Assembly (NCBI GenBank): GCA_013334825.1
Contig: JAAXWR010000002.1
Span: 100,025 to 153,008, forward strand
Direction of reading: 5' to 3'
Origin: Candidatus Yonathbacteria bacterium
GTDB taxonomy: Bacteria > Patescibacteriota > Minisyncoccia > Phycocordibacterales > JACNGX01
Length of the DNA: 52,984 bases
Both the position numbers and the translations under genes were made by a program. The notes beneath the pieces were generated by a model. It did no database searches. It saw only the letters and a list, made by a program, of their open reading frames with translations, and was not told where the DNA came from. Positions 3,152 through 48,235 of this stretch are shown piece by piece. Positions within the stretch are counted from its first letter, which is position 1; every line of letters begins with the position of its first letter.

Positions 3152-3194
3152 AGTTGGAAACTATTCTAAAAGATATGTTATCATGCACCTATAT

Positions 3195-3268
3195 TGCGGG
3201 GTCGTCTAACGTGGTAAGACACGGGCGCTTTGAACGCTTGTATCTGGGTTCGAGCCCTAGCCCCGCAT
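3195..3268 (+). tRNA. tRNA-Gln(UUG), copy 2
   Basis: Positions 3193-3270 are identical to 2042-2119, giving the same cloverleaf. Confidence 0.85.
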
Positions 3269-3270
3269 CA

Positions 3271-3433
3271 GAGCGAAGCGATGATGTGGGGCTAGGGCTC
3301 GAACGCGGAGGGGGTCGGGGAACCTGTTGGTTCCTTGTGGAGGAAGTACATGGAACCGTGGGTTCCATGAGCGCAGCCCAGCCCTTTCCACCGAAAGGGC
3401 TGGGCGAGCAGTGAGTAGCCCTAGCCCCGCATC
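3271..3433 (+). ncRNA. GC-rich multi-hairpin module ending in a copy of the tRNA-Gln 3' end (function unknown)
   Basis: Perfect stems at 3319-3334, 3349-3369 and 3376-3405. 3288-3304 is the exact complement of tRNA positions 3248-3264. 3417-3433 repeats tRNA 3253-3269. Confidence 0.35.
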
Positions 3434-3469
3434 CTACAATATTTATTCTCATTTCTCATTATTACTACC

Positions 3470-5503: not shown

Positions 5504-6841
5504 TCATGAAGGGTTTTCGAGCAATACTTTTTTGTTTATCAGAGTAAGCTTACTTTTAAACGACTGCATCAGCTCGCGCTTCTCCGCGACGGTTCCTTTT
5601 TTGAGAATATATTTTGCATAGGATCGTAGGTCTAAGCCGCTCTGGTCGGTTATCTGGTCTTCGGTTAAGCCAAGTACATTATTACGGAAATTACTGAAGC
5701 GCCCCATCTCTTTTTCGAGTTTTTCTTTAATTCCAATCTTATCTATTTGGATCTTGTCTAAGATCGCTAAAAGTTGTTCGACAAGACTGTCCTCACGCAA
5801 ATAGGTGTTTTTACACGACTTGTCATAAAATCGGGTACAGCCATAGTAGATGTAGCTGTTCGTAGATCCGTCTTTTAGATTTTTAAACTTCTCCTGTGCG
5901 GTTATACCAGAATTACATATTCCGCATTTCATCAGGCGAGTAAATGCAAATTCTTTCACCGCTGGCCCATGCGGTTTATGCGAATCAAGTTTTTCCTGGA
6001 CCTTCTTGAATAACTCCTGACTGATGATTGATTCGTGTCGGCCGATATTCCACCTACCACTCTTCCGTGGGTACTCGAGCAGTCCACAGTAAAAAGGATT
6101 TCGGAGAACGGTGTGCACGTTGCTAAGAGTGAAGGGCTTACCACTTTTGGTTCTAAATTTTAGGTCATCCTTCAACCATCTGTATAACGCTCTTCCACTC
6201 CACTTTTCGTACGCCACTTTTTCAAACATGATTTTGATGACGTGAGAGCGTTGAGGATCGAGAATGACGTGGCATTTCTTGGTGCGATCCGGGTGGTTGA
6301 GGTATCCGGTTGGTGCAACACTCGGCCACAGTCCCATTTCAATCCTGGTGCGAAGTCCGCGCTTCACGTTGACACTCTTATTATCGTTATCAAGCTTCGC
6401 CTGACTACAAAGAATCATCAAGAGGAACTTTTCGCTTGGAGAGTTGGTGAAGCGTTGCCCGTACGTTTTTACTTCTATCAGTTTGTGCTGATCCATCAGG
6501 TCAACAATTGAGCCGAGGTCGCCGGCATTTCTTGAGAGGCGATCGGGATGCCAAGCAAGAATACCGCCAAATCGACCCTCTTTAATTTGCCGGATCATCT
6601 CATTGAAGACCGGTCTCTGAGCAGTCTCTTTTGCCGAGTGCGACTCGCGTTTAATCTCTGTCACCTCGATTCCGTCTCGCTGGGCTAACTGCAACATCTC
6701 CTTGATCTGGGAATCGATGGACAGAGCCTGCTTTTCATCCGATTCGCTCGATTTACGGGCGTATAGGCAGTATTTGGGCGCTTCTATAGGAGGCGCCGGG
6801 TCAGAATTCAACTCTAGCGGGTTGCTGATGTGCATACACAC
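5504..6841 (-). CDS. large serine recombinase (resolvase domain + recombinase domain + zinc ribbon)
   Basis: N-terminal YARKSSESDEKQALSIDSQ resolvase-type catalytic Ser region. Later CGICNSG ... YYGC zinc-ribbon-like cysteines. Confidence 0.85.
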   Translation of the reverse strand: MCMHISNPLELNSDPAPPIEAPKYCLYARKSSESDEKQALSIDSQIKEMLQLAQRDGIEVTEIKRESHSAKETAQRPVFNEMIRQIKEGRFGGILAWHPDRLSRNAGDLGSIVDLMDQHKLIEVKTYGQRFTNSPSEKFLLMILCSQAKLDNDNKSVNVKRGLRTRIEMGLWPSVAPTGYLNHPDRTKKCHVILDPQRSHVIKIMFEKVAYEKWSGRALYRWLKDDLKFRTKSGKPFTLSNVHTVLRNPFYCGLLEYPRKSGRWNIGRHESIISQELFKKVQEKLDSHKPHGPAVKEFAFTRLMKCGICNSGITAQEKFKNLKDGSTNSYIYYGCTRFYDKSCKNTYLREDSLVEQLLAILDKIQIDKIGIKEKLEKEMGRFSNFRNNVLGLTEDQITDQSGLDLRSYAKYILKKGTVAEKRELMQSFKSKLTLINKKVLLENPS

Positions 6842-9057: not shown

Positions 9058-9334
9058 TCTTGAGCCTTGTTGTATATAAATTAACCTAAGCTAAGCTAGA
9101 AATAGGTAGCAAATTTTGCTACAATTATTTAACAGTTCGGCCTAAACTTGTCGGTTAACTCCGGCAAGCATGGCAATAAATACCCGCTAGAGATCAAAGG
9201 ACTCCTGGTCAGAGTCACTCTAGCGGGTCATATCTGGAAACAGGTATGGGTTCGGCCGAAAGGTTGGATCGCGATGGTCAGGAGCCTTTTGATTATCTGG
9301 TTCACTCCGTCGATTAAAAACCCGCTAGAAAATT

Positions 9335-19286: not shown

Positions 19287-19501
19287 AAGTTTTTGTGTTA
19301 TACTAGCCTCTTACGAACGAATCTCTCGTCTCTTTTTCTTTTTATGGTCTCGTTTATAGTTTATCGTTTACCGTTTTCTTCTTCATAATTTGCCTTTCGT
19401 ATTCTTGATTCGTGCTTCTTGATTCCCTGCACCACGTAGGATGCAGGGCACGCTTAATTCGAGTGTCCGCCCCTATCACCTCTAACCTATTTCCTCATTT
19501 T
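19287..19501 (+). repeat. pyrimidine-rich mosaic intergenic repeat (family F), locus 1
   Basis: Modules: TTATCGTTT, tcgtattcttgattcgtgcttc, hairpin ccctgca-N10-tgcaggg (19425-19448), cacgcttaattcgagtgtccg, and tatcacctctaacctatttcc. Shared with the loci at 26422, 39202, 42061 and 52597. Confidence 0.85.
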
Positions 19502-20908
19502 ATGTCCAAACTCCTCGAAGGTCCCATCATCACATCACTGCTTGCGCTCGCGGTGCCTATCGTACTTGCCAACATCTTGCAAACCGCATATCAGCTCACG
19601 GACGCTTTTTGGGTCGGACGTCTCGGGGGAGCGGCAGTTGCCGCCGTGTCGGTGTCATTTCCTATCACCTTTCTTCTTATTGCTCTTGGTGGCGGACTTG
19701 CGATTGCTGGCTCTACGTTGATTGCGCAGTACACGGGAGCAAAGAATAAAGAAATGGTCAGTCATGTCGCGGCACAAACGCTTCTCATGGTGTCTGTTGT
19801 GTCTGTCGTTCTCGGTATTATCGGGTATACACTTGCTCCGAGTATCTTGCGTCTTATGGGCGTGACATCTGATGTGTATACTGATGCGCTTGGTTTCATG
19901 CGTGTATCGTTCGTGGGAATCTTGTTCACCTTTATCACTATTATGTTCCAGTCGATTATGCGCGGTATCGGCAAGGCGACATTGCCCATGTATATCGTGT
20001 TGGTAACAGTCGTGCTCAACTTCGCGCTTGATCCATTCTTTATCTTTGGATGGGGAGGATTTCCCGCCTATGGCGTAGCGGGTGCCGCTCTCGCGACATT
20101 TGTGACACAAGCGCTTGCTGCTGTTGCCGGATTGGTCGTTCTTTTTGGTGGTAGACATGGTATCCATTTGAAGGTAAAGGATTTTACTCCTGATGTGCCA
20201 TTTATGCGCAAAGCATTTTTTCTTGGACTGCCTGCATCTATTGAACAATCAACACGCGCGCTTTCAATGACTGTCATGACATTTCTTATTACGAGTTTTG
20301 GTACACTCGCTATTGCTGGGTATGGTGTCGGTTCGAATGTTATTCAGCTTGTCATTATTCCGTCACTTGGTTTATCGATGGCTGTCTCGGCGCTTGTTGG
20401 CCAGAATATTGGTGCAGGGAACATGAAGCGTGCGGAGGATATTGCGCGTCTTGGAGCGATGATTTCATTTGTGGCACTTTCTGTTATTGGTGTCATCTCA
20501 TATATTTTTGCACCTCATATCATGGGATTTTTCGTACCTGGAGATGTGGCTACCATCGCAGTTGGTGTGTCATTTGTCCATGCAGTTGCGCTTACATTTG
20601 GCTTCATAGGTATTCAAATGGCGCTTCTTGGCGTGTTTCGTGCGTCTGGTAATATGATGACAACCATGATTCTGACGCTTGTATCGCAATGGGTACTTCA
20701 ATTTCCTCTTGCATATATTCTTTCCAAACATACTTCGCTCGGTGTGAACGGTATTTGGTGGGCATTTCCACTTACAAATATTCTTACAACGGCAATTACT
20801 ATTCTTTGGTATATGAAGGGAGATTGGAAGAACAAAAAATTGACGAAGGAAGAAAAAATTGAAGAAACTGTTTCCGAAGAAATTTTTGTGGAGGAAGGAG
20901 TGAGATAG
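19502..20908 (+). CDS. MATE family efflux transporter
   Basis: N-terminus PIVLANILQTAYQLTDAFWVGRLG and a 12-TM-like hydrophobic profile. Confidence 0.9.
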   Translation: MSKLLEGPIITSLLALAVPIVLANILQTAYQLTDAFWVGRLGGAAVAAVSVSFPITFLLIALGGGLAIAGSTLIAQYTGAKNKEMVSHVAAQTLLMVSVVSVVLGIIGYTLAPSILRLMGVTSDVYTDALGFMRVSFVGILFTFITIMFQSIMRGIGKATLPMYIVLVTVVLNFALDPFFIFGWGGFPAYGVAGAALATFVTQALAAVAGLVVLFGGRHGIHLKVKDFTPDVPFMRKAFFLGLPASIEQSTRALSMTVMTFLITSFGTLAIAGYGVGSNVIQLVIIPSLGLSMAVSALVGQNIGAGNMKRAEDIARLGAMISFVALSVIGVISYIFAPHIMGFFVPGDVATIAVGVSFVHAVALTFGFIGIQMALLGVFRASGNMMTTMILTLVSQWVLQFPLAYILSKHTSLGVNGIWWAFPLTNILTTAITILWYMKGDWKNKKLTKEEKIEETVSEEIFVEEGVR

Positions 20909-26421: not shown

Positions 26422-26700
26422 AGTATATGGGGAAATAGGTTATAAATATAGGAAAGAGGTTAGAGGAACGGACATTCGAATCAAGCGTGCCCTGCATCCT
26501 ACGTGGTGCAGGGAATCACGAAGCACGAATCAAGAATTAAGGGTTACGAAGTACGAACTTGTACGAACATACGAAACGAGACGGGAATCAAGAATACGAG
26601 AGGCGAATGAAGAAATATGAACGTAGGAAATAGGTTAGAGGTGATAGGTTATAGGGACAGACGGGAAGCATGCTGAGATGTTAGGTTTATTCTTGCGCCT
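26422..26700 (-). repeat. family F intergenic repeat, locus 2 (inverted orientation)
   Basis: Reverse complement carries the same modules, including hairpin 26490-26513 and TAACCTATTTCC (26431-42) 9 nt upstream of the znuA ATG. Confidence 0.85.
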
Positions 26701-32969: not shown

Positions 32970-33002
32970 TAAAATAAAACCCCAAGGGCATGCCTTGGGG
33001 TT
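32970..33002 (-). terminator. hairpin terminator
   Basis: ccccaagg/ccttgggg stem followed by a T-run on the minus strand. Confidence 0.55.
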
Positions 33003-33022
33003 CAACTATAGTATGCTCCAGT

Positions 33023-33049
33023 GGTAGGGATTATCCCGCAGTCACTAAG
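33023..33049 (-). repeat. partial family-E end (T-arm-like hairpin + TTAGTGAC box)
   Basis: ggtagggattatcccgcagtcactaag versus ggtagggctcgtcccgcagtcactaag at 33570-33596. Confidence 0.7.
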
Positions 33050-33195
33050 TAGGCGGCAGTAGGACTTGAGGTAGAGTAGTTGTTCTCTATGTCTGGAAGT
33101 TTCGAATCAAAGGCTTGCATATATAAAAAAGAACCGCCGACGCTGAGTGAGAAATTTTGACAAACGTCCTTTCTCCTTTCAGTGTGGCGGTTATT

Positions 33196-33474
33196 TCAAT
33201 TTACAAACGGGTGCGATGAGTTTATCCCATACACATAATGCCACGTGTGTGGGAATTGAAAGTACGGAAATGTATCCGCAACTTTCATTGTGATACAAAT
33301 AGACCCGTTGTCACCACTAGAGTGGTAGAAGTTGCCCTCTATACACTCTTTACCACGTCTCCACGCGCATGCGTGAGAATCGGATCCTTTTTTAAAGGTA
33401 ACCTCGTCAGGATTGACTCCTGTTACGATTGCGAAGGCTTTTTTGCCCAAATTTGCCAGATCTTGTCCATTCAT
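33196..33474 (-). CDS. hypothetical protein (cassette 2 downstream of tRNA-Asn)
   Basis: 92-aa ORF lying between two family-E ends. Confidence 0.4.
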   Translation of the reverse strand: MNGQDLANLGKKAFAIVTGVNPDEVTFKKGSDSHACAWRRGKECIEGNFYHSSGDNGSICITMKVADTFPYFQFPHTWHYVYGINSSHPFVN

Positions 33475-33568
33475 ATGAACCCCAGTCGTTTTGATGTTTA
33501 TTTATGTGATGGAACAGTATTAAAATGTATCGTACCATTTATACCATACTTTGTCAAATATATATTAA

Positions 33569-33680
33569 CGGTAGGGCTCGTCCCGCAGTCACTAAGCGGA
33601 TTGCTCCAAGTATTCGCAATCCGCAAAGTGCTGCTCCCCGCGGCGCGGCGACAAGCATGCGCGAACAGGCCACGCATCTT
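33569..33680 (-). repeat. family-E structured element fused to a copy of the tRNA-Asn 3' end
   Basis: The reverse complement aligns along about 110 nt with 43197-43313. Hairpin 33596-33624 has loop GAATACTTGGA. The terminal cggtagggctcg equals the tRNA-Asn 3' region (34431-34442). Confidence 0.8.
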
Positions 33681-33761
33681 ATTGTGTAAAGAGAAAGGCG
33701 GTCATCTCACGATGCCGCCTTGTAAAATACTCTTACAAACACAAATTACAAGCTGTTTTTA

Positions 33762-34304
33762 TTAAACTGCAACAAGCCCGACTTTGGTAGATTCGTACTT
33801 GGCACGGGTGATCATGCCGTTCTGGTCGGTGACAGTTATGCAATCTCCGACTTCCATCACCACCAAAGAATCATACCAGCCGATATTCTCTTTGTCCTGG
33901 CGGACAAAGAAATCAACCGGTCCGGTCGCGTTCTCAATGGCCTTGTTGTGTCCTTCGCGGGAAATGGACATCCCGCGTTCAAACCTCCAAGCGCCTGTGC
34001 ACTTTTGGTTTGAATGTCCGGCAACTGAGTATTGTGCCTTCGTACGAATCACGACGAGTATGTTTTCACTTTCGTGATTCGGCTTTGCCAGGGCGTACCC
34101 GTCACGAATCGGAACAGGGTGTGCTTCCATAATGATGCCAACCCACGGCATCCCAGGACCCTCGATGCGTTCGGCGGGATTTTTGTGGAAGAACGGGATG
34201 TTTTTCTGATTTTTCCCCGCTCCCAAACAAAGGGCGGACACTTTTGATCCAGTACTCATTGCACCGCGGCGGACCTTCTGGTCGGAAATTTCGTAGACGT
34301 TCAT
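33762..34304 (-). CDS. hypothetical protein (cassette 1 downstream of tRNA-Asn)
   Basis: 180-aa ORF with a strong AAGGAGG 5 nt upstream of the ATG. Confidence 0.6.
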   Translation of the reverse strand: MNVYEISDQKVRRGAMSTGSKVSALCLGAGKNQKNIPFFHKNPAERIEGPGMPWVGIIMEAHPVPIRDGYALAKPNHESENILVVIRTKAQYSVAGHSNQKCTGAWRFERGMSISREGHNKAIENATGPVDFFVRQDKENIGWYDSLVVMEVGDCITVTDQNGMITRAKYESTKVGLVAV

Positions 34305-34425
34305 GGCTTCCTCCTTAAGGAAAATCCGACAGCTTTCGCTGGGATTGTTTTAGTGTTTGTGTATAGGTATTGTTGGGAACTTTATTGTGTATATTATACA
34401 CTAGAATAAGTCTATTTGTCAAGTG

Positions 34426-34498
34426 CTCCGGCGGTAGGGCTCGAACCTACGACCAACGAGTTAACAGCTCGCCGCTCTACCAACTGAGCTACGCCGGA
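34426..34498 (-). tRNA. tRNA-Asn(GUU)
   Basis: Minus-strand cloverleaf: acceptor TCCGGCG/CGCCGGA, D arm GCTC-AGTTGGTA-GAGC, anticodon loop CTGTTAA, T arm GTAGG-TTCGAGC-CCTAC. Confidence 0.9.
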
Positions 34499-34506
34499 AT
34501 GGTACA

Positions 34507-34758
34507 TATTTGATTGTAAAACAAAACTTCTTATAAACAATTCCGTATATCTGCCAAAACAGCTACTTCGGAACAGTATATGTATTTGATTGTAAAACAA
34601 AACTTCTTATAAACAATTCCGTATATCTGCCAAAACAGTTATGCGGGAATATTGATACTACAATCTTTTGTAGTGTTTTGTGAGATTGGGACAAACCCGT
34701 ATATCTGCCAAAACAGCTACTTCGGAACAGTATATGTATTTGATTGTAAAACAAAACT
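34507..34758. repeat. 76-bp tandem repeat (one full copy plus two partial copies, the last after a 58-bp spacer) between tRNA-Asn and pyk
   Basis: Unit tatttgattgtaaaacaaaacttcttataaacaattccgtatatctgccaaaacagctacttcggaacagtatatg. Copies at 34507-34582, 34583-34638 (partial) and 34697-34758 (partial). Confidence 0.9.
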
Positions 34759-34962
34759 CCCTATTGGAATGATTGCTTGTCCCAAACTCTTTGTTACCTG
34801 TCAGGTAACGTTCTTTATCATACCAAACGGACGAAAAATGGCAACCTGTTTTCCCATACTGTCAAAATGTCTAAGAGTAGTATATACTATTGATGCCAGA
34901 TGTTCTCCGGCGTATTTTTTACCATTTTATTTTCCCGCCATAGGCGTTTCATATTTATGAAA

Positions 34963-39201: not shown

Positions 39202-39700
39202 GCGGATTAGAAGCGAAAGGTGAGTTTCCCGCGACGTCTCTGCTATGGTGGGGTGGATAAATTTTAAGAATGTTTATGAAGATTACGAATAATGAATGTA
39301 TACGAATACGATTTTTTTTATCGTTTATAGTTTTCTCTTCCCATATTCCTTATTTCTATTTTCTTATTTCATTGTCTATAGTTTTCGTTTTCATATTTCT
39401 ATTTTCTTATTTCATCGTCTATCGTTTATAGTTTTCGTCTTCATATTTCATATTTCATCATTCGTCTTTCGTATTCTTGCTTCATGCTTCGTGATTCGTG
39501 CTTCGAGTATCTGTCCCTATAACCTATCACCTATAACCTCTTTCCTACGTTCATATTTCATCATTCATCTCTCACATTCTTGCTTCATGCTTCGTGATTC
39601 GTGCTTCGAGTATCTGTCCCTATAACCTATCACCTATAACCTCTTTCCTACATTCGTCCGTCCCTATCACCTCTAACCCATTTCCTACATTCATATTCCC
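39202..39700 (+). repeat. family F intergenic repeat, locus 3 (expanded)
   Basis: T/C-rich modules with TTATCGTTT (39318, 39420). Includes the 103-bp tandem duplication and a third partial distal module (39652-39690). Confidence 0.85.
39448..39651 (+). repeat. tandem duplication, 2 x 101 bp (period 103)
   Basis: 39448-39548 and 39551-39651. The distal portion of about 75 nt is identical; the few mismatches are all near the 5' part. Confidence 0.9.
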
Positions 39701-42060: not shown

Positions 42061-42291
42061 GACGAGAAGCAAGAATACGGGAAAACTGGAAGCAAGAATC
42101 ACGAAGCACGAATCAAGAATACGGGAAAACTGGAAGCGCGGGACGAACTTACTGGAAGCAAGCTTGCCATGCACCCTACGTGGTGCAGGGAACATACGAA
42201 CCGAGACGGGAATCAGGAATACGAGACTGAAGGACAGGAGGTGAGAATCAAGACAAAACTGATAGGGAAGCATGGGACAGTGGCGAATACT
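42061..42291 (-). repeat. family F intergenic repeat, locus 4 (inverted orientation)
   Basis: The reverse complement carries tcgtattcttgattcgtgcttcgtgattc modules and a degenerate hairpin (42167-42190). Confidence 0.8.
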
Positions 42292-42660
42292 TTATTTTTT
42301 TTGTTCCGTCACTCTAAATGCGACAATTTTTTCTATGAGGTCATAGGGAATAGGTTTTTCAATAGGGAATTGGATCGCACCCTTTGATGTTTTGTAGAGA
42401 GAAAGCTCCTTTTCAAATTTTTTGATTGCTGAGGGTGTCGGATAAAAACCGATATGATACGTGAATGCGGCGAAGTGTACCAAGTTGCCGTTCAGAGTAA
42501 ATGTCGGCATGCCGTAGGCAATTTTCTCTTCCGCGCGTGGCGCAGCTTTTTGTATTGTTCGCCGTATCTTTTTCAGTATCGTCTGGATATTAGAAGGGAA
42601 CGCAGCGATATATGCGTCGATATCCGCGTATGTGTGTTGCATGCTGGTGCGCCCGCTCAT
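42292..42660 (-). CDS. DUF1801 (YdhG-like) domain protein
   Basis: IDAYIAAFPSNIQTILKKIRRTI ... YGMPTF ... LVHFAAFTYHIGFYP is the typical DUF1801 layout. Confidence 0.6.
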   Translation of the reverse strand: MSGRTSMQHTYADIDAYIAAFPSNIQTILKKIRRTIQKAAPRAEEKIAYGMPTFTLNGNLVHFAAFTYHIGFYPTPSAIKKFEKELSLYKTSKGAIQFPIEKPIPYDLIEKIVAFRVTEQKK

Positions 42661-42813
42661 ATGCGCATTATAGCAGTAGGGGAAGACATGTCGCAGTAAC
42701 GGTAAGTGGATAATGTCGAGGTGTATCGTCAAAAAAGCAACATTGTCTTTTGGGCATTTTTGTATTAAAATAATGCGCACGTATTTCAAGAAATACAACG
42801 TATCATACAAATT

Positions 42814-42833
42814 GGCCCTATCGTCTGATGGTT
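42814..42833 (+). pseudogene. 5' fragment of tRNA-Glu
   Basis: ggccctatcgtctgatggtt matches tRNA-Glu positions 1-20 with one mismatch. It lies 74 nt upstream of the real gene. Confidence 0.6.
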
Positions 42834-42887
42834 GATCGCCGTCGCGAAAGGGTAATAACATATATAAAGAGAAAAGAGAATAATCAT

Positions 42888-42959
42888 GGCCCTATCGTCT
42901 AATGGTTAGGACATCACCCTCTCACGGTGGTAATCGGGGTTCAAATCCCCGTAGGGTCA
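42888..42959 (+). tRNA. tRNA-Glu(CUC)
   Basis: Acceptor GGCCCTA/TAGGGTC, D arm GTCT-AATGGTTA-GGAC, anticodon stem TCACC/GGTGG, loop CTCTCAC, T arm CGGGG-TTCAAAT-CCCCG. Confidence 0.9.
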
Positions 42960-43024
42960 CAAAAAATCTTTAGGTCGCCGAAGAGGCGACCTTTAGATTT
43001 TTCTGTGACCCTACGAGAAAGGCA

Positions 43025-43167
43025 ACTGCTTGCCTTTCGTGGGATTTGAACCGGCGGAGCATATCGCACCAAAAGTGCGATGCGAGCCGCGCCCAGCGGT
43101 ACTTATGAAAATCCGAATACATGGAGGATTTTCATTAGTAACCGCGGGGTCGACTCCCCGTAGGGTC
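43025..43167 (+). repeat. family-E structured module 1 (ends in a tRNA-Glu 3'-end copy)
   Basis: Hairpin atcgcac/gtgcgat, GCCGCGCC box, hairpin 43106-43134 with loop GAATACATGGA, TTAGTAAC, T-arm-like cgggg-tcgact-ccccg, then tagggtc. Confidence 0.8.
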
Positions 43168-43170
43168 TTT

Positions 43171-43313
43171 ATATGAGTCGAACGGCGCAAGGCGGTATAC
43201 AAGATGCGCGACTTGTTCGCGCATGCTTGTCGCCGCGCCGCGTCCAGGAGTACTTAGTAGATTGCGAATACTTGGAGCAATCTACTTAGTAACTCCGGGA
43301 CGACTCCCCGTAA
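43171..43313 (+). repeat. family-E structured module 2
   Basis: Hairpin atgcgcga/tcgcgcat, GCCGCGCC box, hairpin 43257-43285 with loop GAATACTTGGA, TTAGTAAC, then ccgggacgactccccgta. Confidence 0.8.
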
Positions 43314-43318
43314 ATCGG

Positions 43319-43470
43319 ACTGCTTGCCTTTCGTGGGATTTGAACCGGCGGAGCATATCGCACCAAAAGTGCGATGCGAGCCGCGCCCAGTAACCCTTTG
43401 CATATTCCGAATACCTGGAGTAATATACGTAATAATCGGTAATAATCGCGGGACGATTTCCCGTAGGGTG
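43319..43470 (+). repeat. family-E structured module 3
   Basis: 43319-43390 is identical to 43025-43096. Degenerate hairpin with loop GAATACCTGGA (43409-19). Ends cgcgggacgatttcccgtagggtg. Confidence 0.75.
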
Positions 43471-43596
43471 TCACCGTCATTGTTTGGTATGAGAAAGCTT
43501 CGGTAAAATGTCTTTTGAGAGGTACTTTAGTTGATATTTCAATATTTTTTTAAACGTCTTTTGACTCCTTTTAATAAAGTAAAATAAGAATTTTCA

Positions 43597-45696
43597 ATGA
43601 AAATATTCAAGATAAAAATTGAAAACTACAGACTTTTAAAAAAATTCTCTATTGATTTGGAGGATAAACTTTCGTTGATTATTGGCAAGAACAATACTGG
43701 GAAAACCTCTATACTTACAATCCTCGATAAGTCATTAAATTTTGAAAAGATTAGATTTTCTCTAGATGATTTTAATGTTGACTTCAAGAAGGACCTGAAG
43801 ACCTTAATTGAGACAAATGAAGATACGTTAGAAGATGATTTTAATAAATACAATGGTTTAGGTATAAAACTCAAGTTATTCATTAAATATGGAGAGGGTG
43901 ATAATCTCACCAATATCAGTCGAGTAATGATGGATCTTGACCCAACCAATAATGTTATCGTTCTCGGTTTCGATTATGTACTGGACTATTCTCATTATAT
44001 AGAACTTAAAAGAGATTATTCTGCTTTCAAAATTAACGAGGAATCAAAAAAGGCAGCCGAATCAAAATATGAAATAAAATGTTTTTTTGATTTTCTCAGA
44101 GAGACTCACTCTTCTTACTTTAAAATAAGAAGAAAAACCATCGAGTTTGATCAGCACACAAAGGAAGAAAATGAGGCAAATTTCATCGATTTAATTAAGG
44201 AAAAGATAAACATCAAGGACATCATTAATTTTAAATACATCAGCGCGAAGCGAGAGGTCGCCAACACCGATTCCGACAAAACGCTCTCGGCGCAAACCTC
44301 TAAGATATATGAGAAGACCGAAATAAGTGACGACCAGAGCGAGGTCATTGAGGTTTTTAAAGATAGGCTGACCGAAGCCGATGCCAGTTTAAGTAACGTA
44401 TATAAAACGCTGTTTGCTAACGCCATAGAGAAAGTAAGAAAATTCGGAGGCGTCAAAATCAACGAATCAGAGATTGAAATAATCTCAACTCTGCAACATC
44501 AAAAATTGCTTGAGGGAAACACTACTGTCGTATATAGGCATGATGTAGATAGCCAGCTCCCCGAGCATTACAACGGACTCGGCTACATGAATCTAATTAG
44601 CATGATTTTTGAGATTGAAATCCTCTTGCAGGATTTCAAGAAAGAAAAAGAATCAAAACCCGCTGACATCAATCTGCTTTTTATTGAAGAGCCTGAGGCG
44701 CATACTCACCCTCAAATGCAGTATGTGTTCATCAAGAACATAAAGGAGCTACTCAGAGAAGGAATCAAAAGAACGGACGGAGAAAATCGAGAGCTACAGT
44801 ACATCATCAGCACCCACTCTTCGCACATTGTCGCCGACAGTGATTTCGACGACATCAAATATCTCAAAAAAGACGACAGCGATGGTGTCACAGCAAGAAA
44901 TCTCAAAGACCTTCAGAAAGAATACACAACAGGGAAAAACCAGTATCAATTTTTGAGGCAGTATCTGACGATTAGCAGGGCTGAAATATTCTTTGCAGAG
45001 AAAGCTGTGCTTATCGAGGGTGACACCGAAAGAATCTTGATACCGACGATAATGAAGAAAGTCGATATTGAGGAAGTAACCGCACACGAAACGGCAGGTA
45101 CGACAGACCCTTGTCTTCCGCTATTGTCGCAGAATATTTCCATCATAGAAGTTGGCGCATATTCTCAGATTTTCGAGAAATTCATAGACTTTCTGGGAAT
45201 CAAATCTTTGGTTGTTACAGACTTGGACACAGTCGATGCTGACGGAGTGGCTTGCAAAGTAGCCGACGGTGTTGGCTACTCAAACAGTGCCCTCAACTTC
45301 TTTTTTGGCACACCCACACTCGCCGCTTTGAGAGGATTTGCCATCGGAGACAAGCAACTCAGCAAGGTCACTGGCGCTTGGGCTCGACAAGCCGATGGTA
45401 AGGTTTGTGTCGTATACCAAGTTGAAGAGAATGGGTATAACGCTCGAAGCTTCGAGGACGGATTCATACACCTTAATCGAGCATTCGTAACAACTAACAA
45501 AGACAGCTTCCAAGGATTGCAGAATCGGGCTGACTTTGACGATGGTGCGAAAGACGCGTATGACCTCGCTGGCAACTGCATAAAAAAGAAAACTCACTTT
45601 GCATTGGATATTCTATTTCACAGCAATGAAAACCTCGATAACTGGCTAATACCGTCGTATATAAGAGAAGGACTCCTATGGTTGAAGAAAGACTAA
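43597..45696 (+). CDS. OLD-family ATPase-Toprim nuclease (GajA-like)
   Basis: Walker A GKNNTGKTS, Walker B region LLFIEEPEAHTHPQMQ, C-terminal Toprim VLIEGDTERILIP and VVTDLDTVD. Confidence 0.85.
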   Translation: MKIFKIKIENYRLLKKFSIDLEDKLSLIIGKNNTGKTSILTILDKSLNFEKIRFSLDDFNVDFKKDLKTLIETNEDTLEDDFNKYNGLGIKLKLFIKYGEGDNLTNISRVMMDLDPTNNVIVLGFDYVLDYSHYIELKRDYSAFKINEESKKAAESKYEIKCFFDFLRETHSSYFKIRRKTIEFDQHTKEENEANFIDLIKEKINIKDIINFKYISAKREVANTDSDKTLSAQTSKIYEKTEISDDQSEVIEVFKDRLTEADASLSNVYKTLFANAIEKVRKFGGVKINESEIEIISTLQHQKLLEGNTTVVYRHDVDSQLPEHYNGLGYMNLISMIFEIEILLQDFKKEKESKPADINLLFIEEPEAHTHPQMQYVFIKNIKELLREGIKRTDGENRELQYIISTHSSHIVADSDFDDIKYLKKDDSDGVTARNLKDLQKEYTTGKNQYQFLRQYLTISRAEIFFAEKAVLIEGDTERILIPTIMKKVDIEEVTAHETAGTTDPCLPLLSQNISIIEVGAYSQIFEKFIDFLGIKSLVVTDLDTVDADGVACKVADGVGYSNSALNFFFGTPTLAALRGFAIGDKQLSKVTGAWARQADGKVCVVYQVEENGYNARSFEDGFIHLNRAFVTTNKDSFQGLQNRADFDDGAKDAYDLAGNCIKKKTHFALDILFHSNENLDNWLIPSYIREGLLWLKKD

Positions 45697-47579
45697 AACT
45701 TGAGCCAGAGGTTCAGGAAATATTCACTTGTATCGACAACAAGCGGAATTTTCTCTTGAGTGGTGGTGCTGGAAGTGGCAAGACCCATTCTTTGGTACAA
45801 GTAATCAAACAGGTCATAGCAGAAAACCCGACATCGAGAATAGCTTGCATGACTTTTACGAATGCGGCGGTCAAACAAATCGAAGAAAGAATCGGACATG
45901 CTAATCTTAGCGTATCCACGATCCATGATTTTTTATGGGATAACATCAAGCATTTTCAAAACGAACTCAAAATAGCGTTAGTTTCTATGGCAAATGACCC
46001 TCTTGTTGAAAAAATTAAAATAGAAGACCCAACACCAGTACCGAATGATTTTTTTGATCCATGCGAAAAAGGAATTCAATATAAAGAATATCTAAAGTTG
46101 AATAAGGGTATAATTTCACATGACGAGTTACTCTTGGTAGCAAACTATCTTTTTGAAAATTACCCTAAGCTTTGCGACATTGTAAAAGACAAGTTCGGTT
46201 TCATCTTCATTGACGAATATCAGGACACGGACAAAGCGGTTGTGGTAATTCTTCTTGACCATTTCAATCAAAGCGTTAAGCACAACATCGTCGGTTTCTT
46301 CGGGGATGCTATGCAGTCGATTTACGACGACGGTATCGGGAATCTTGACGCATATAAAGGAACAAATCCAGATCAAGTACAGGAAATTAAAAAGGAGCAA
46401 AATAGAAGAAATCCTAGAGCTATCATTGACCTCGCTAACAGGTTGCGCACGGACGGAATAACACAGGTACCCTCAATCGATAGAACCGCCCCGAACATGA
46501 CGACTGGCGGAGAGGTAAAAGAAGGAATCATTAAATTTATCTACTCTACAAATCCAGACATTGATCCAGTGAGATCATATCTGTCAGAAAATTTTGGTTG
46601 GGACTTTTCCAATTCCAAGGAAACAAAGGAACTGAATCTGACACATAACCTAATAGCGGACAAGGCTGGTTTTAGAACTTTGATGGATATATACGACAAG
46701 GAGAGAATCTTGGAATTGAAATACAAAATCACAAAGGAGATAAAGGAAAAAAATATAACGATTGCTGAGGCAGCCACTTTCGGTGAGGTTATTGACCAAG
46801 TTAATTTGATGATTAGTCCCACTACCGAGATTGGTAGGTTTCTTACTGAAAATCCTGAATTGTATGAAAAGGCTCGAGGATATCTTTTTTCAGATTTCAG
46901 AAAAATATATGCGGATAAAGAGCAATTACTCGACGATAAAAAACAAGACGAGGAGGATGAGAATAAAAAGGGCACAAAAAGAGATAATCTCATACGGCAC
47001 CTCTTTAAAATTCAAAATAATATTTTTCTGTATCAAAACAAGCAGTATAATGAATTTTTACGAGTCACTGATTTTTCTATTTTAACTATTGGAGATAAGG
47101 AGGATTTACAGAAGAATATTGAAGAGTTGACGAGTGTTGGAGATAAGACAATCGAAGAAATAATTAATCTTGCTGATGAAAACGGAATTTGTTTTATTGA
47201 CGACAATCTTGTTCGTTTCAAAATTGAAAATGAATACCTTTACGATCGTGTAAAAGAGGTTAAATTCAGCGAGTTCCAGAAGCTGTACGATTATTTGGAG
47301 GGTAAGACTCCATTCTCTACCCAGCATAAAACCAAAGGTGCGGAATTCGACAATGTATTCATCATTTTGGATAATGGCAAATGGAACGACTACAATTTCG
47401 AAAACCTTTTTCTTGGGTCAGGTAAAGCGAGTGTTTTAGAAAGAACACAAAAAATTTTCTATGTTTGCTGTACTCGGTCAAAGGAAAAATTAGCTGTCTT
47501 CTTTCATGATCCATCGGCTGGAGTAATCACCAAAGCACAAGAATGGTTCGGAGCTGAAAATGTGATATCACTGCCGTAG
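45678..47579 (+). CDS. UvrD/PcrA-like superfamily 1 helicase (GajB-like)
   Basis: GGAGSGKTHS, FIFIDEYQDTD, HKTKGAEFDNVFI and YVCCTRSKEKL. Overlaps the upstream OLD gene by 19 nt. Confidence 0.85.
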   Translation: MVEERLKLEPEVQEIFTCIDNKRNFLLSGGAGSGKTHSLVQVIKQVIAENPTSRIACMTFTNAAVKQIEERIGHANLSVSTIHDFLWDNIKHFQNELKIALVSMANDPLVEKIKIEDPTPVPNDFFDPCEKGIQYKEYLKLNKGIISHDELLLVANYLFENYPKLCDIVKDKFGFIFIDEYQDTDKAVVVILLDHFNQSVKHNIVGFFGDAMQSIYDDGIGNLDAYKGTNPDQVQEIKKEQNRRNPRAIIDLANRLRTDGITQVPSIDRTAPNMTTGGEVKEGIIKFIYSTNPDIDPVRSYLSENFGWDFSNSKETKELNLTHNLIADKAGFRTLMDIYDKERILELKYKITKEIKEKNITIAEAATFGEVIDQVNLMISPTTEIGRFLTENPELYEKARGYLFSDFRKIYADKEQLLDDKKQDEEDENKKGTKRDNLIRHLFKIQNNIFLYQNKQYNEFLRVTDFSILTIGDKEDLQKNIEELTSVGDKTIEEIINLADENGICFIDDNLVRFKIENEYLYDRVKEVKFSEFQKLYDYLEGKTPFSTQHKTKGAEFDNVFIILDNGKWNDYNFENLFLGSGKASVLERTQKIFYVCCTRSKEKLAVFFHDPSAGVITKAQEWFGAENVISLP

Positions 47580-47851
47580 TTATATTTCATCTTTTCTCAA
47601 AATAGTTTTATTCCCCAAGCATTTTGCAAGTTATTGAAGACCACCTAATGAGGACAAATTCTTGTATTATATTATCCATGTTTTTAATTTCACTCCAGTT
47701 TTGTCTCCAAGAAGTGTCTACATATTGGTTAGTCACACAAAATAGTTATATACGAGAAAGTTTGAAACGGTCTAAAAACATTAAGAGCAGTATTATAAGA
47801 CGAGGAATCTCCTTTAACCTTCTCAACCCTGCTATACTAAAGAAAAGCTAT

Positions 47852-48235
47852 ATGAGTATGAAACCAAAAAAACCAAAAGATAGTAGCGAGTGGCGCGACA
47901 CCTATTATCATAAACTGTTCGGGCTCAAAGCCGCGCAAGAAGCGGAGCGGGTGCTTCCGCTTTTTGAACGAGAACACCCTGGCGACAGCCGGCCGCGAAA
48001 GGCAATCGAAGCCTTGCGATCGTGGGCGGAAGGGAAGCGTGCCCTCAATATGAAAGAAGTGCGGACGCTTTCTCTCGATGCTCATGCCGCCGCACGAGAA
48101 GCGACATCGGACGCTGCCCGGCACGCGGCGCGAGCCGCGGGGCAGGCGATTGCCACATGGCATGTGCCCACGCATGCATTGGGGGCCTTTTCCTATGCGG
48201 CAAAAGCTCTCTGTGCTCAAAAGAAAGACAGGTAA
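47852..48235 (+). CDS. all-alpha hypothetical protein, resembles 'putative immunity protein' (Imm5-like) families, tentative
   Basis: 127 aa, Ala-rich helical repeat DAHAAAREATSDAARHAARAAGQAIATWHVPTHALGAFSYAAKA. Visibly GC-richer than its neighbours. TGCTATACT promoter at 47830-38. Confidence 0.4.
   Translation: MSMKPKKPKDSSEWRDTYYHKLFGLKAAQEAERVLPLFEREHPGDSRPRKAIEALRSWAEGKRALNMKEVRTLSLDAHAAAREATSDAARHAARAAGQAIATWHVPTHALGAFSYAAKALCAQKKDR

Follow-up and report, generated by a model that had tools for sequence, protein, structure and literature searches.

The tRNA-Asn locus described here is part of a 52,984-nt stretch of DNA from Candidatus Yonathbacteria (hereafter the window, to which positions refer unless another locus is named) and is read on the minus strand. 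Downstream of tRNA-Asn(gtt), the locus is organized as two successive units, each of which contains one open reading frame (ORF) and one structured element of a family designated E (Table 1). Counted from the tRNA gene, unit 1 comprises a promoter, a conserved 5' untranslated region (5'UTR), a 180-aa ORF, a terminator, the core of element E1, and a 12-nt copy of tRNA-Asn sequence, and unit 2 comprises a promoter, a 92-aa ORF, the decayed element E2, and the tRNA relic TCCCTACCACTGGAGCA. The tRNA gene, both ORFs, E1, E2, and the copies of the tRNA 3' end are all found where an initial annotation, made from the letters alone, had placed them. As proposed there, the elements close segments that end in copies of the tRNA 3' end. 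The promoter of the 180-aa gene begins 3 nt past tRNA-Asn in a consensus promoter scan; the terminator of unit 1 is absent from the listing of the consensus scan and is homologous to the terminator of a second locus, L032.

Element E1 has a close counterpart elsewhere in the window. Positions 33578-33680 (minus strand) align with positions 43201-43303 (plus strand) in module M2, past tRNA-Glu, with 85.4% identity over 103 nt (E = 1e-19), which bears out the alignment reported in the initial annotation. In the Asn and Glu copies alike, the switch from element to tRNA-specific sequence occurs at the T-loop position, also as described there. The 12-mer CGAGCCCTACCG that follows E1 is identical to tRNA-Asn from the T loop into the acceptor. 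Taken alone, this match is weak (E about 0.2-0.35), and it is convincing because the same rule is obeyed at more than 20 independent loci. E2 contains an exact 16-nt match to E1, CTTAGTGACTGCGGGA (33049-33034, E = 0.001), and the remaining, decayed part of E2 probably corresponds to a left-arm end, the motif TTCCAG, and the hairpin hp3. The core motif GAATACNTGGAG-N9-TAGTRAC is found four times in the window, compared with 0.04 occurrences expected. Tandem repeats of about 75 nt are located upstream of tRNA-Asn (34507-34764) and tRNA-Glu (42813-42887), and 3-4 copies are present at locus L014 (567-865); the 5' end of the tRNA is copied at the start of each repeat, which also contains the promoter region.

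Table 1. Features of the tRNA-Asn locus and of the tRNA-Glu array (hp, hairpin; SD, Shine-Dalgarno sequence; rc, reverse complement).
Feature	Position	Strand	Remarks
tRNA-Asn(gtt)	34425-34498	-	ARAGORN; Rfam 70 bits; anchor, attB/attL-like
Promoter of 180-aa gene	34393-34422	-	TTGACA-18-TATAAT, 12/12; abuts tRNA-Asn 3' end
5'UTR hairpin and SD of 180-aa gene	34305-34392	-	conserved
180-aa ORF	33762-34304	-	AAGGAGG 6 nt ahead of ATG
Terminator of 180-aa gene unit	33688-33720	-	hairpin aggcggcatcgtgagatgaccgcct and T-rich tail; read directly from sequence
E1 core	33581-33680	-	covariance-model match, 83 bits
E1 hp2	33680-33653	-	
E1 J2 GTCGCCGCGCCGCG	33652-33639	-	
E1 long hairpin hp3	33638-33581	-	loop GAATACTTGGA, then TTAGTGAC and CGGGA
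Junction and displaced tRNA-Asn copy CGAGCCCTACCG	33569-33580	-	T loop to acceptor; ends after 12 nt
Promoter of 92-aa ORF	33529-33557	-	TTGACA-17-TACGAT with TG extension, 10/12; directly past junction
92-aa ORF	33196-33474	-	orphan, putative gene
E2, degenerate E unit	33031-33108	-	GATTCGAAAC (probable left-arm end), TTCCAG, probable decayed hp3, then CTTAGTGACTGCGGGA
Oldest tRNA-Asn 3'-end relic TCCCTACCACTGGAGCA	33014-33030	-	14/17 positions match; ancestral trailer next
Ancestral tRNA-Asn trailer terminator	32977-33003	-	kept in L025; outer border of variable segment
tRNA-Glu(ctc), second anchor	42888-42960	+	ARAGORN
Bidirectional terminator past tRNA-Glu	42961-43004		
Module M1	43005-43149	+	left arm, J1, hp2, J2, hp3
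M1 left arm	rc acceptor 43005-15; hp1 43018-37; rc T part 43040-52	+	
Unit with module M2	43150-43300	+	closest relative of E1
M2 unit parts	decayed tRNA-Glu 3' part 43150-67; short left arm GAGTCGAAC 43175-83; core 43184-43300	+	
Unit with module M3	43301-43474	+	5'-truncated, hp3 decayed
Terminal tRNA-Glu relic CGATTTCCCGTAGGGTGTCAC	43454-74	+	

The E family extends well beyond the window. A 34-nt pattern identified 6 loci in genomes of the GTDB (Paceibacterota, Saccharibacteria, and Parcubacteria metagenome-assembled genomes) and 20 in metagenome contigs, and a covariance model, R2, then yielded 36 copies within the retrieved sequences. Thirty of these copies follow a same-strand tRNA or transfer-messenger RNA (tmRNA) gene located 29-1479 nt upstream, three further copies lie past tmRNA 3' ends that ARAGORN missed, and the last three are at contig edges; 33 copies are thus observed just downstream of a tRNA or tmRNA gene, on its strand. 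The uncalled tmRNA genes are located at about 1460-1900 in L005 and about 6650-7062 in L007, where the 3' ends …GGTTCGATACCCCCCATCTCCAC… and …GGTTCAATTCCCCCCATCTCCACCA are visible upstream of the modules. The host tRNAs of E modules include Glu, Phe, Ala, Arg, Lys, Val, Tyr, Gly, Pro, and Asn, and the claim that one element family has used different tRNA genes can now be extended to at least 11 tRNA identities and tmRNA. Most E modules carry no ORF.

Database comparisons returned no described counterpart. At the gathering threshold, Rfam recognizes only tRNA and LOOT in the whole window (the LOOT RNA, RF03000, at 9139-9270 on the plus strand, 79 bits), and an E-value scan of 42950-43520, which covers M1-M3, gave chance miRNA matches only. 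Three patterns run against viral contigs produced two chance matches only, no full-module match was found among INPHARED phages and PLSDB plasmids, and literature searches for a described equivalent of E modules returned nothing relevant. The E elements are a real, previously undescribed family that follows tRNA and tmRNA genes across bacteria of the candidate phyla radiation (CPR). A miniature inverted-repeat transposable element was considered and rejected, since the arms copy the local tRNA rather than element-constant terminal inverted repeats, target-site duplications are absent, and copies are found only at tRNA and tmRNA tails. Small elements bounded by terminal inverted repeats of 17-20 bp (CCAGCTC.AC.TTCATG... 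and AGAACCAGTCTCACTGAAAA...) are nested within modules or separate the tRNA from the left arm (L025 131-360; L010; L014; L006 3800-3990).

Read on the tRNA strand, a full module begins with the reverse complement of the 3' strand of the local acceptor (7 nt and 1-3 nt of trailer), which is followed by AG, hairpin hp1, CG, and the local T stem and T loop, again as the reverse complement (...GGAATCGAAC). Next come GGCGGAGCAT, a variable hairpin hp2, GCGAGCCGCG, and the long hairpin hp3, and a tRNA 3' part, copied directly from about T-loop position 57 onward, ends the module. The conserved boxes of the core are GGCGGAGCAT, GCGAGCCGCG, GAATACNTGGAG, and TTAGTRAC-NN-CGGGAC. Hairpin hp3 has the form (G)UCC-AG-NN-GUACUU, stem, loop GAAUACNUGGA, stem, UUAGUAAC-NN-CGGGA(C), in which the apical loop is invariant. 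The CGGGA that the initial annotation assigned to a T-arm-like hairpin pairs with UCC(A)G at the base of hp3 and, because it is paired with UCC, represents the 3' base of this hairpin instead. The module end GGGAC aligns with GGTTC of the T arm, and the relic copies therefore lack T54 and T55.

The hairpin is supported by covariation. In 21 copies of hp3, 88.9% of cells are paired, compared with 28-47% when the partners are slid, and 73 cells are doubly changed, compared with 13-30 in the slid controls. The covariation score of 0.433, which 0 of 500 shuffles reach, compares with at most 0.133 in controls. The left arm, in turn, follows the local target. Mismatches of the reverse-complement acceptor average 0.67 to its own tRNA versus 1.9 for non-cognate pairs, and the arm tracks the T-loop variant: the tRNA-Glu of the window has TTCAAAT with ATTTGAA in the arm, whereas that of the 93%-identical relative L014 has TTCGATT with AATCGAA, and in tmRNAs the T loop TTCAATT is paired with a left arm containing AATTGAA. 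The spacer that holds hp1 is exactly 25 nt long in 12 of 18 tRNA-proximal left arms and 0 nt in four of them. The E core contains no copy-specific internal loops, and only the outer arms vary with the target. In silico, the single strand that runs from the T arm of the tRNA through hp3 folds into three hairpins (z = -14.4 and -15.2), namely hp2, hp3, and, ahead of them, a giant hairpin that joins the tRNA 3' part, the terminator, and the left arm and from which hp1 branches off. The arms complement the 3' part of the local tRNA, and in this computed fold the inverted segments pair into a duplex that reproduces the chromosomal target.

The modules form arrays with the order tRNA 5' part, newest unit, older units, and original 3' end, in which displaced copies decay with distance from the tRNA gene. 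The second unit of L006 keeps an identical 42-nt terminator and has a decayed 3' part, and older units lack the palindrome center in L027 and in M2 and M3 of the window. The 3' part and the left arm are complementary within a unit (TCGACTC/GAGTCGA in the window, TCGATTC/GAATCGA in L014), with the exception of L018, in which pairing with the following arm fits better.

The tRNA-Asn locus can be compared with that of a close relative, the 57-kb metagenome contig L025, which is 82-92% identical to the window and syntenic with it over pyruvate kinase, HisRS, signal peptidase, Pth, and the penicillin-binding protein (PBP). In L025, the same tRNA-Asn is followed by an unrelated non-coding module of about 220 nt that ends in ...GTAAGGAGAGA joined directly to GCCCTACCGCCGGAGCA, and neither ORF is present. 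GCCCTACCGCCGGAGCA is a 17-nt exact tRNA repeat and is followed by the same trailer and terminator as at 33013-32977 of the window. Because L025 has these borders without the ORFs, both ORFs of the window are insertions between conserved borders; because the relic and flank of L025 match there, the relic at 33030-14 is the ancestral tRNA end; and because L025 carries a different insert between the same borders, the locus is an insertion hotspot with att-like borders. This comparison favors the initial annotation, which had looked to related genomes for the presence or absence of each insert. The arrangement of the window is also present in L038, from a second sample.

The two ORFs differ in how far they can be traced. 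The 180-aa protein belongs to a rare family, for which a word search returned four homologues with 51-56% identity, and an exhaustive HMMER search of 1.84 billion representatives returned 29 clusters. At loci L029-L031 and L032, the gene is accompanied by the same promoter, 5'UTR hairpin, and Shine-Dalgarno sequence; the homologous promoter can be seen in L029 and L032, and L032 also has the homologous terminator. The conserved 5'UTR (34305-34392; L029 5900-6000; L032 2930-3026) contains a hairpin AATCCC...GGATT and a second hairpin that encloses the Shine-Dalgarno sequence, which suggests translational control of the gene. The 180-aa gene is a promoter-to-terminator passenger that moves by other routes too. 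AlphaFold, given 26 sequences, predicts a confident all-β protein (pLDDT 90.5, pTM 0.88); a model from five sequences had a pLDDT of 44 and was unusable. A Foldseek search of the confident model against the PDB and BFVD found no relative (best E = 0.08). Neither protein matches a family in Pfam, PHROGs, PADLOC, or NCBIfam, in agreement with the initial annotation, which had recognized no family in either. For the 92-aa ORF, the search returned neither a homologue nor an entry for the ORF itself, and it may not be a gene.

By Pfam, the approximately 50 ORFs of the window include no Phage_integrase-type protein and no IS110 gene, the families listed for 83 neighboring ORFs of the other loci (the 25 most frequent of 94) include no integrase, and the tRNA-Asn island itself contains only the 180-aa and 92-aa ORFs and no integrase. 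The description of the locus as lacking an adjacent integrase thus stands. A large serine recombinase (5504-6841, minus strand) was the sole recombinase identified in the window; it has Resolvase, Recombinase, and Zn_ribbon_recom domains and weak CcrB/XisF-like matches and is encoded 0.7 kb downstream of tRNA-Gln(ctg).

The window contains several other features of note. Right after the last tRNA-Glu relic, a complete Gabija system (GajA 43597-45696, GajB 45678-47579) and an Imm5-like gene are encoded within 43597-48235. A tRNA-Glu relic that would place Gabija inside the array was sought beyond it, and none was found. The Gabija genes, the Imm5-like gene, and a DUF1801 gene (42292-42861) are absent from the relatives L014 and L025, in which the segment with tRNA-Glu and the modules is inverted and lies between the PBP and an RNaseH-like gene. 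Module families related to E adjoin both tRNA-Gln(ttg) genes, which are two 100%-identical copies (2042-2119 and 3193-3270) with an orphan 247-aa ORF between them. Copy 1 is followed by a left arm with a 25-nt hairpin, and copy 2 by another module family (3270-3435) whose end, GCCCTAGCCCCGCATC, repeats the 3' part of tRNA-Gln exactly. Purine-rich intergenic repeats, GAATCACGAAGCACGAATCAAGAATACG..., are found at several gene ends (26513-26601 and 42082-42226 on the plus strand; 19382-19506 and 39342-39700 as the reverse complement) and in the related contigs L017, L027, and L025. Two intergenic direct repeats (14356-14422/15447-15513, 67 nt, 94%; 22943-22988/23867-23912, 46 nt, 100%) look like duplicated promoter or leader regions. 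The window also encodes HisRS, Pth, PBP, and pyruvate kinase, and with these genes and the LOOT RNA it is a chromosome of CPR type.

The tRNA-Asn segment may well be a small island grown by accretion at an insertion hotspot in the tRNA T loop, in which the E elements are a family of recombinase-less units moved by a recombinase acting in trans and joined by gene units as passengers, and we tentatively favor this reading. A unit would start inside the T loop by supplying a substitute for the tRNA 3' part; in a non-coding unit, a terminator would come next, then the reverse-complement left arm split by the 25-nt hairpin, and the unit would end in the core, J1, hp2, J2, and hp3 (...TTAGTRAC-NN-CGGGAC). 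The last bases of hp3 would mimic the 5' half of the T arm (GGGAC for GGTTC) and abut the displaced, older tRNA 3' part. The tRNA-Asn 3' part from the T loop onward would thereby belong to the newest inserted unit, and successive insertions at the live tRNA gene would generate the order tRNA, newest unit, older unit, and original 3' end with its trailer. At tRNA-Asn, two single-gene promoter-to-terminator passengers would replace the terminator and left arm in two units. Insertion would probably occur by conservative site-specific recombination in the T loop, at about positions 56-59, between the tRNA gene and a circular or folded single-stranded unit whose arms and hp3 base could rebuild a duplex mimic of the T arm of the tRNA gene. 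Candidates for the putative trans-acting enzyme are the serine recombinase at 5504-6841 and host Xer-type enzymes. The predicted circle junction is ...CTTAGTGACTGCGGGA joined to CGAGCCCTACCGCCGGAGCACTTGACA..., and the predicted empty or alternative junction is tRNA-Asn followed by TACTATAGTTGAACCCC.

This trans-mobilization model explains the borders, the order of decay, the polymorphism, and why no integrase is present; several observations weigh against it. No recombinase is linked to modules at any locus, and the serine recombinase of the window has no homologue near modules elsewhere. No circular junction and no fully empty site was seen, the L025 site being occupied by another module, and the junction can be placed only to within 1-2 nt. 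The 180-aa gene in L029-L031 and L032 has no tRNA or E element nearby, and therefore an ORF and its E end are not demonstrably co-mobile. In addition, the regularity of the left arm and its fixed hairpin hp1 is not predicted by ordinary att relics, and the strong covariation is equally compatible with a functional RNA.

The last point leads to a possible, though rather unlikely, alternative, in which the modules would encode a structured non-coding RNA: a trailer of the tRNA whose left and right arms form a tRNA-like acceptor/T minihelix and which is transcribed by read-through of the tRNA gene and processed by tRNA enzymes. The arrays would then have arisen by tandem duplication, and the ORFs would have arrived by illegitimate recombination at fragile palindromes. 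Covariation supports not only hp3 but also hp1 and a P2-type pairing; the modules are always on the tRNA strand; and the apical loop GAAUACNUGGA is invariant. The arms are able to pair into an acceptor/T-like helix of 7 + 5 bp, from which hp1 projects at the place of the tRNA body; on the tRNA strand, 15 G-U pairs stand against 8 A-C pairs; and no recombinase is found nearby. This RNA, however, would have to be made past a strong bidirectional terminator that separates tRNA and module at most loci and leaves no room for a promoter, and an independent RNA needs no copy of the neighboring tRNA acceptor. Many copies are truncated, decayed, or interrupted by nested insertions, and module content varies between 82-93% identical genomes at exact T-loop borders.

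The same target-matched arms could also belong to a structure-guided or nucleic-acid-guided recombination device of a new kind, whose tRNA-mimicking hairpin unit would act as single-stranded DNA or RNA. In such a device the arms, which are split at the acceptor/T boundary, would present or recognize the T arm of any tRNA gene. We consider this explanation unlikely.

Exchange without any dedicated recombinase is less probable still and rather improbable overall. Here, the tRNA and the E core or relic would serve as homology arms, and natural transformation with RecA-type recombination would swap the contents between them. Shared flanks are available, since hp3 is 85-90% identical across phyla, and relatives do differ in contents between identical borders; no recombinase is linked to the modules, and a 72-nt stretch that is 100% identical in M1 and M3 suggests gene conversion. 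The blocks of homology are nevertheless short (17-100 nt), and swapping leaves unexplained the T-loop borders with their GGGAC mimic, the architecture of left arm and hp1, and the spread of one core to more than 11 tRNAs.

It is highly improbable that the E core derives from IS110/IS1111 insertion sequences (ISs) as an orphan or non-autonomous element, acting as a bridge-RNA-like guide whose arms would specify the tRNA target and which a DEDD recombinase encoded elsewhere would mobilize. In its favor, IS110-family elements (L012 822-1985; L033 2300-3760) have entered left arms of two unrelated contigs at precisely the same position, the inner edge GGATTCGA^A (the caret marks the insertion point). 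The family is abundant in Paceibacterota, and the E core, at about 100-170 nt, places two hairpins between target-matched segments. The L012 protein contains DEDD_Tnp_IS110 and Transposase_20 domains by a direct Pfam run, as does the L033 protein P0032 by precomputed matches. Both elements, however, have their own inverted ends and their own downstream right-end (RE) non-coding RNA with its own junction sequences, and the core outside them, to their right, is E-type in one contig and of another family in L033. Because their ends and RNA are their own and the cores outside differ, these IS110 elements target modules rather than own them. The E core as the bridge RNA of these particular elements is ruled out, since they have their own ends and non-coding RNA. 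Searched by tblastn with the L012 transposase, neither the window nor the other module loci yielded a match, and no IS110 gene is present at either. Furthermore, the variable "guides" of the modules cover the same target half on both strands, which the loops of bridge RNAs reportedly do not. Chance, or an ordinary segmental duplication unrelated to tRNA-Asn, would fit the 12-mer alone, which is not significant, and is effectively excluded by the E1 and M2 alignment, 36 members at tRNA and tmRNA genes in unrelated assemblies, and the relic and flank in L025.

Among known systems, E works most like integron attC arrays, clusters of attC sites lacking integrases (CALINs), and tandem tRNA-anchored islands. 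As in attC arrays and CALINs, short units are arrayed at one primary site with the newest unit by the anchor, and each is closed by an imperfect palindrome that is better conserved in structure than in sequence. As at attC, the crossover lies at the edge of the palindrome, beyond which the neighbor's sequence begins, and, as for CALINs, arrays exist without an integrase. In comparison with integrons, the anchor of E is the T loop of a tRNA or tmRNA rather than attI, no IntI is present, and the R''/R' boxes (RYYYAAC/GTTRRRY) are absent, the palindromic fold being present without a GTTRRRY core. The window ORFs have their own σ70-type promoters (12/12 and 10/12 consensus positions), whereas integron cassettes are promoterless; most E units contain no ORF; and one arm of the palindrome reproduces about 20 nt from the local target. 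The resemblance to integrons proposed in the initial annotation is therefore supported in part; it fails for the ORF and end as one co-mobile cassette, given that the 180-aa gene occurs without E, most E modules are ORF-less, and each ORF has a consensus promoter.

tRNA and tmRNA islands, including tyrosine-integrase islands and the tycheposons of Prochlorococcus, share with E the border direct repeats of the tRNA 3' part, the restoration of the tRNA by the incoming element, relics that decay with distance, and a cargo hotspot that includes defense genes. As in such islands, the tRNA-Asn locus has a distal direct repeat of the tRNA 3' part and an insert that is present or absent between relatives. 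The E units, however, are small (0.15-0.8 kb) and encode no integrase, and they have a conserved structured end and an inverted target copy, with one end family serving many tRNAs. The features that define an integron (IntI, R boxes, and promoterless cassettes) are lacking, as is the internal integrase of a classical island.

Three further systems are partly similar. CTX-phi and integrative mobile elements exploiting Xer (IMEX) use a folded single-stranded attP and exploit host Xer. Like E, they have no recombinase of their own, and two inverted segments about 100 nt apart can fold into the target duplex. The target of E, however, is not dif, its arms stay together whereas those of CTX-phi lie at opposite prophage ends, and no phage or plasmid carrier of E was found in the databases searched. 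Neither an Xer gene nor a dif site is present in the window. Pseudo-SCC cassettes of the staphylococcal cassette chromosome mec (SCCmec) type, which are moved in trans by large serine recombinases, are likewise recombinase-less and stack at a conserved gene 3' end with short direct repeats between them, and the window encodes a weakly Ccr-like serine recombinase. The differences are the tRNA anchor in place of rlmH, the far smaller size of E units, and the link between serine recombinase and modules, which is only a candidate. Repetitive extragenic palindromic sequences and bacterial interspersed mosaic elements (REP/BIME) are, like attC sites, preferred IS110/IS1111 targets. They resemble E as abundant structured intergenic repeats with IS110 at one fixed position (L012, L033), whereas E modules are tied to tRNA 3' ends and have target-matched arms.

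CPR bacteria (Patescibacteria) have tiny genomes and few recognized mobile elements, and how they gain, for example, defense systems is poorly understood. The E module could prove characteristic of a general site of gene capture in CPR bacteria: in the window, modules border two inserted orphan genes, and a Gabija system adjoins the tRNA-Glu array. Known att sites do not predict an inverted arm that matches the target and is split by a fixed hairpin, and this arm may provide a handle on a possibly new recombination mechanism or on a new structured RNA linked to tRNAs. If the guided-device explanation were true, it would mean integrase-less capture and stacking of genes, including defense systems, across CPR bacteria. 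The motif and the covariance model enable a census of such hotspots in metagenome-assembled genomes.

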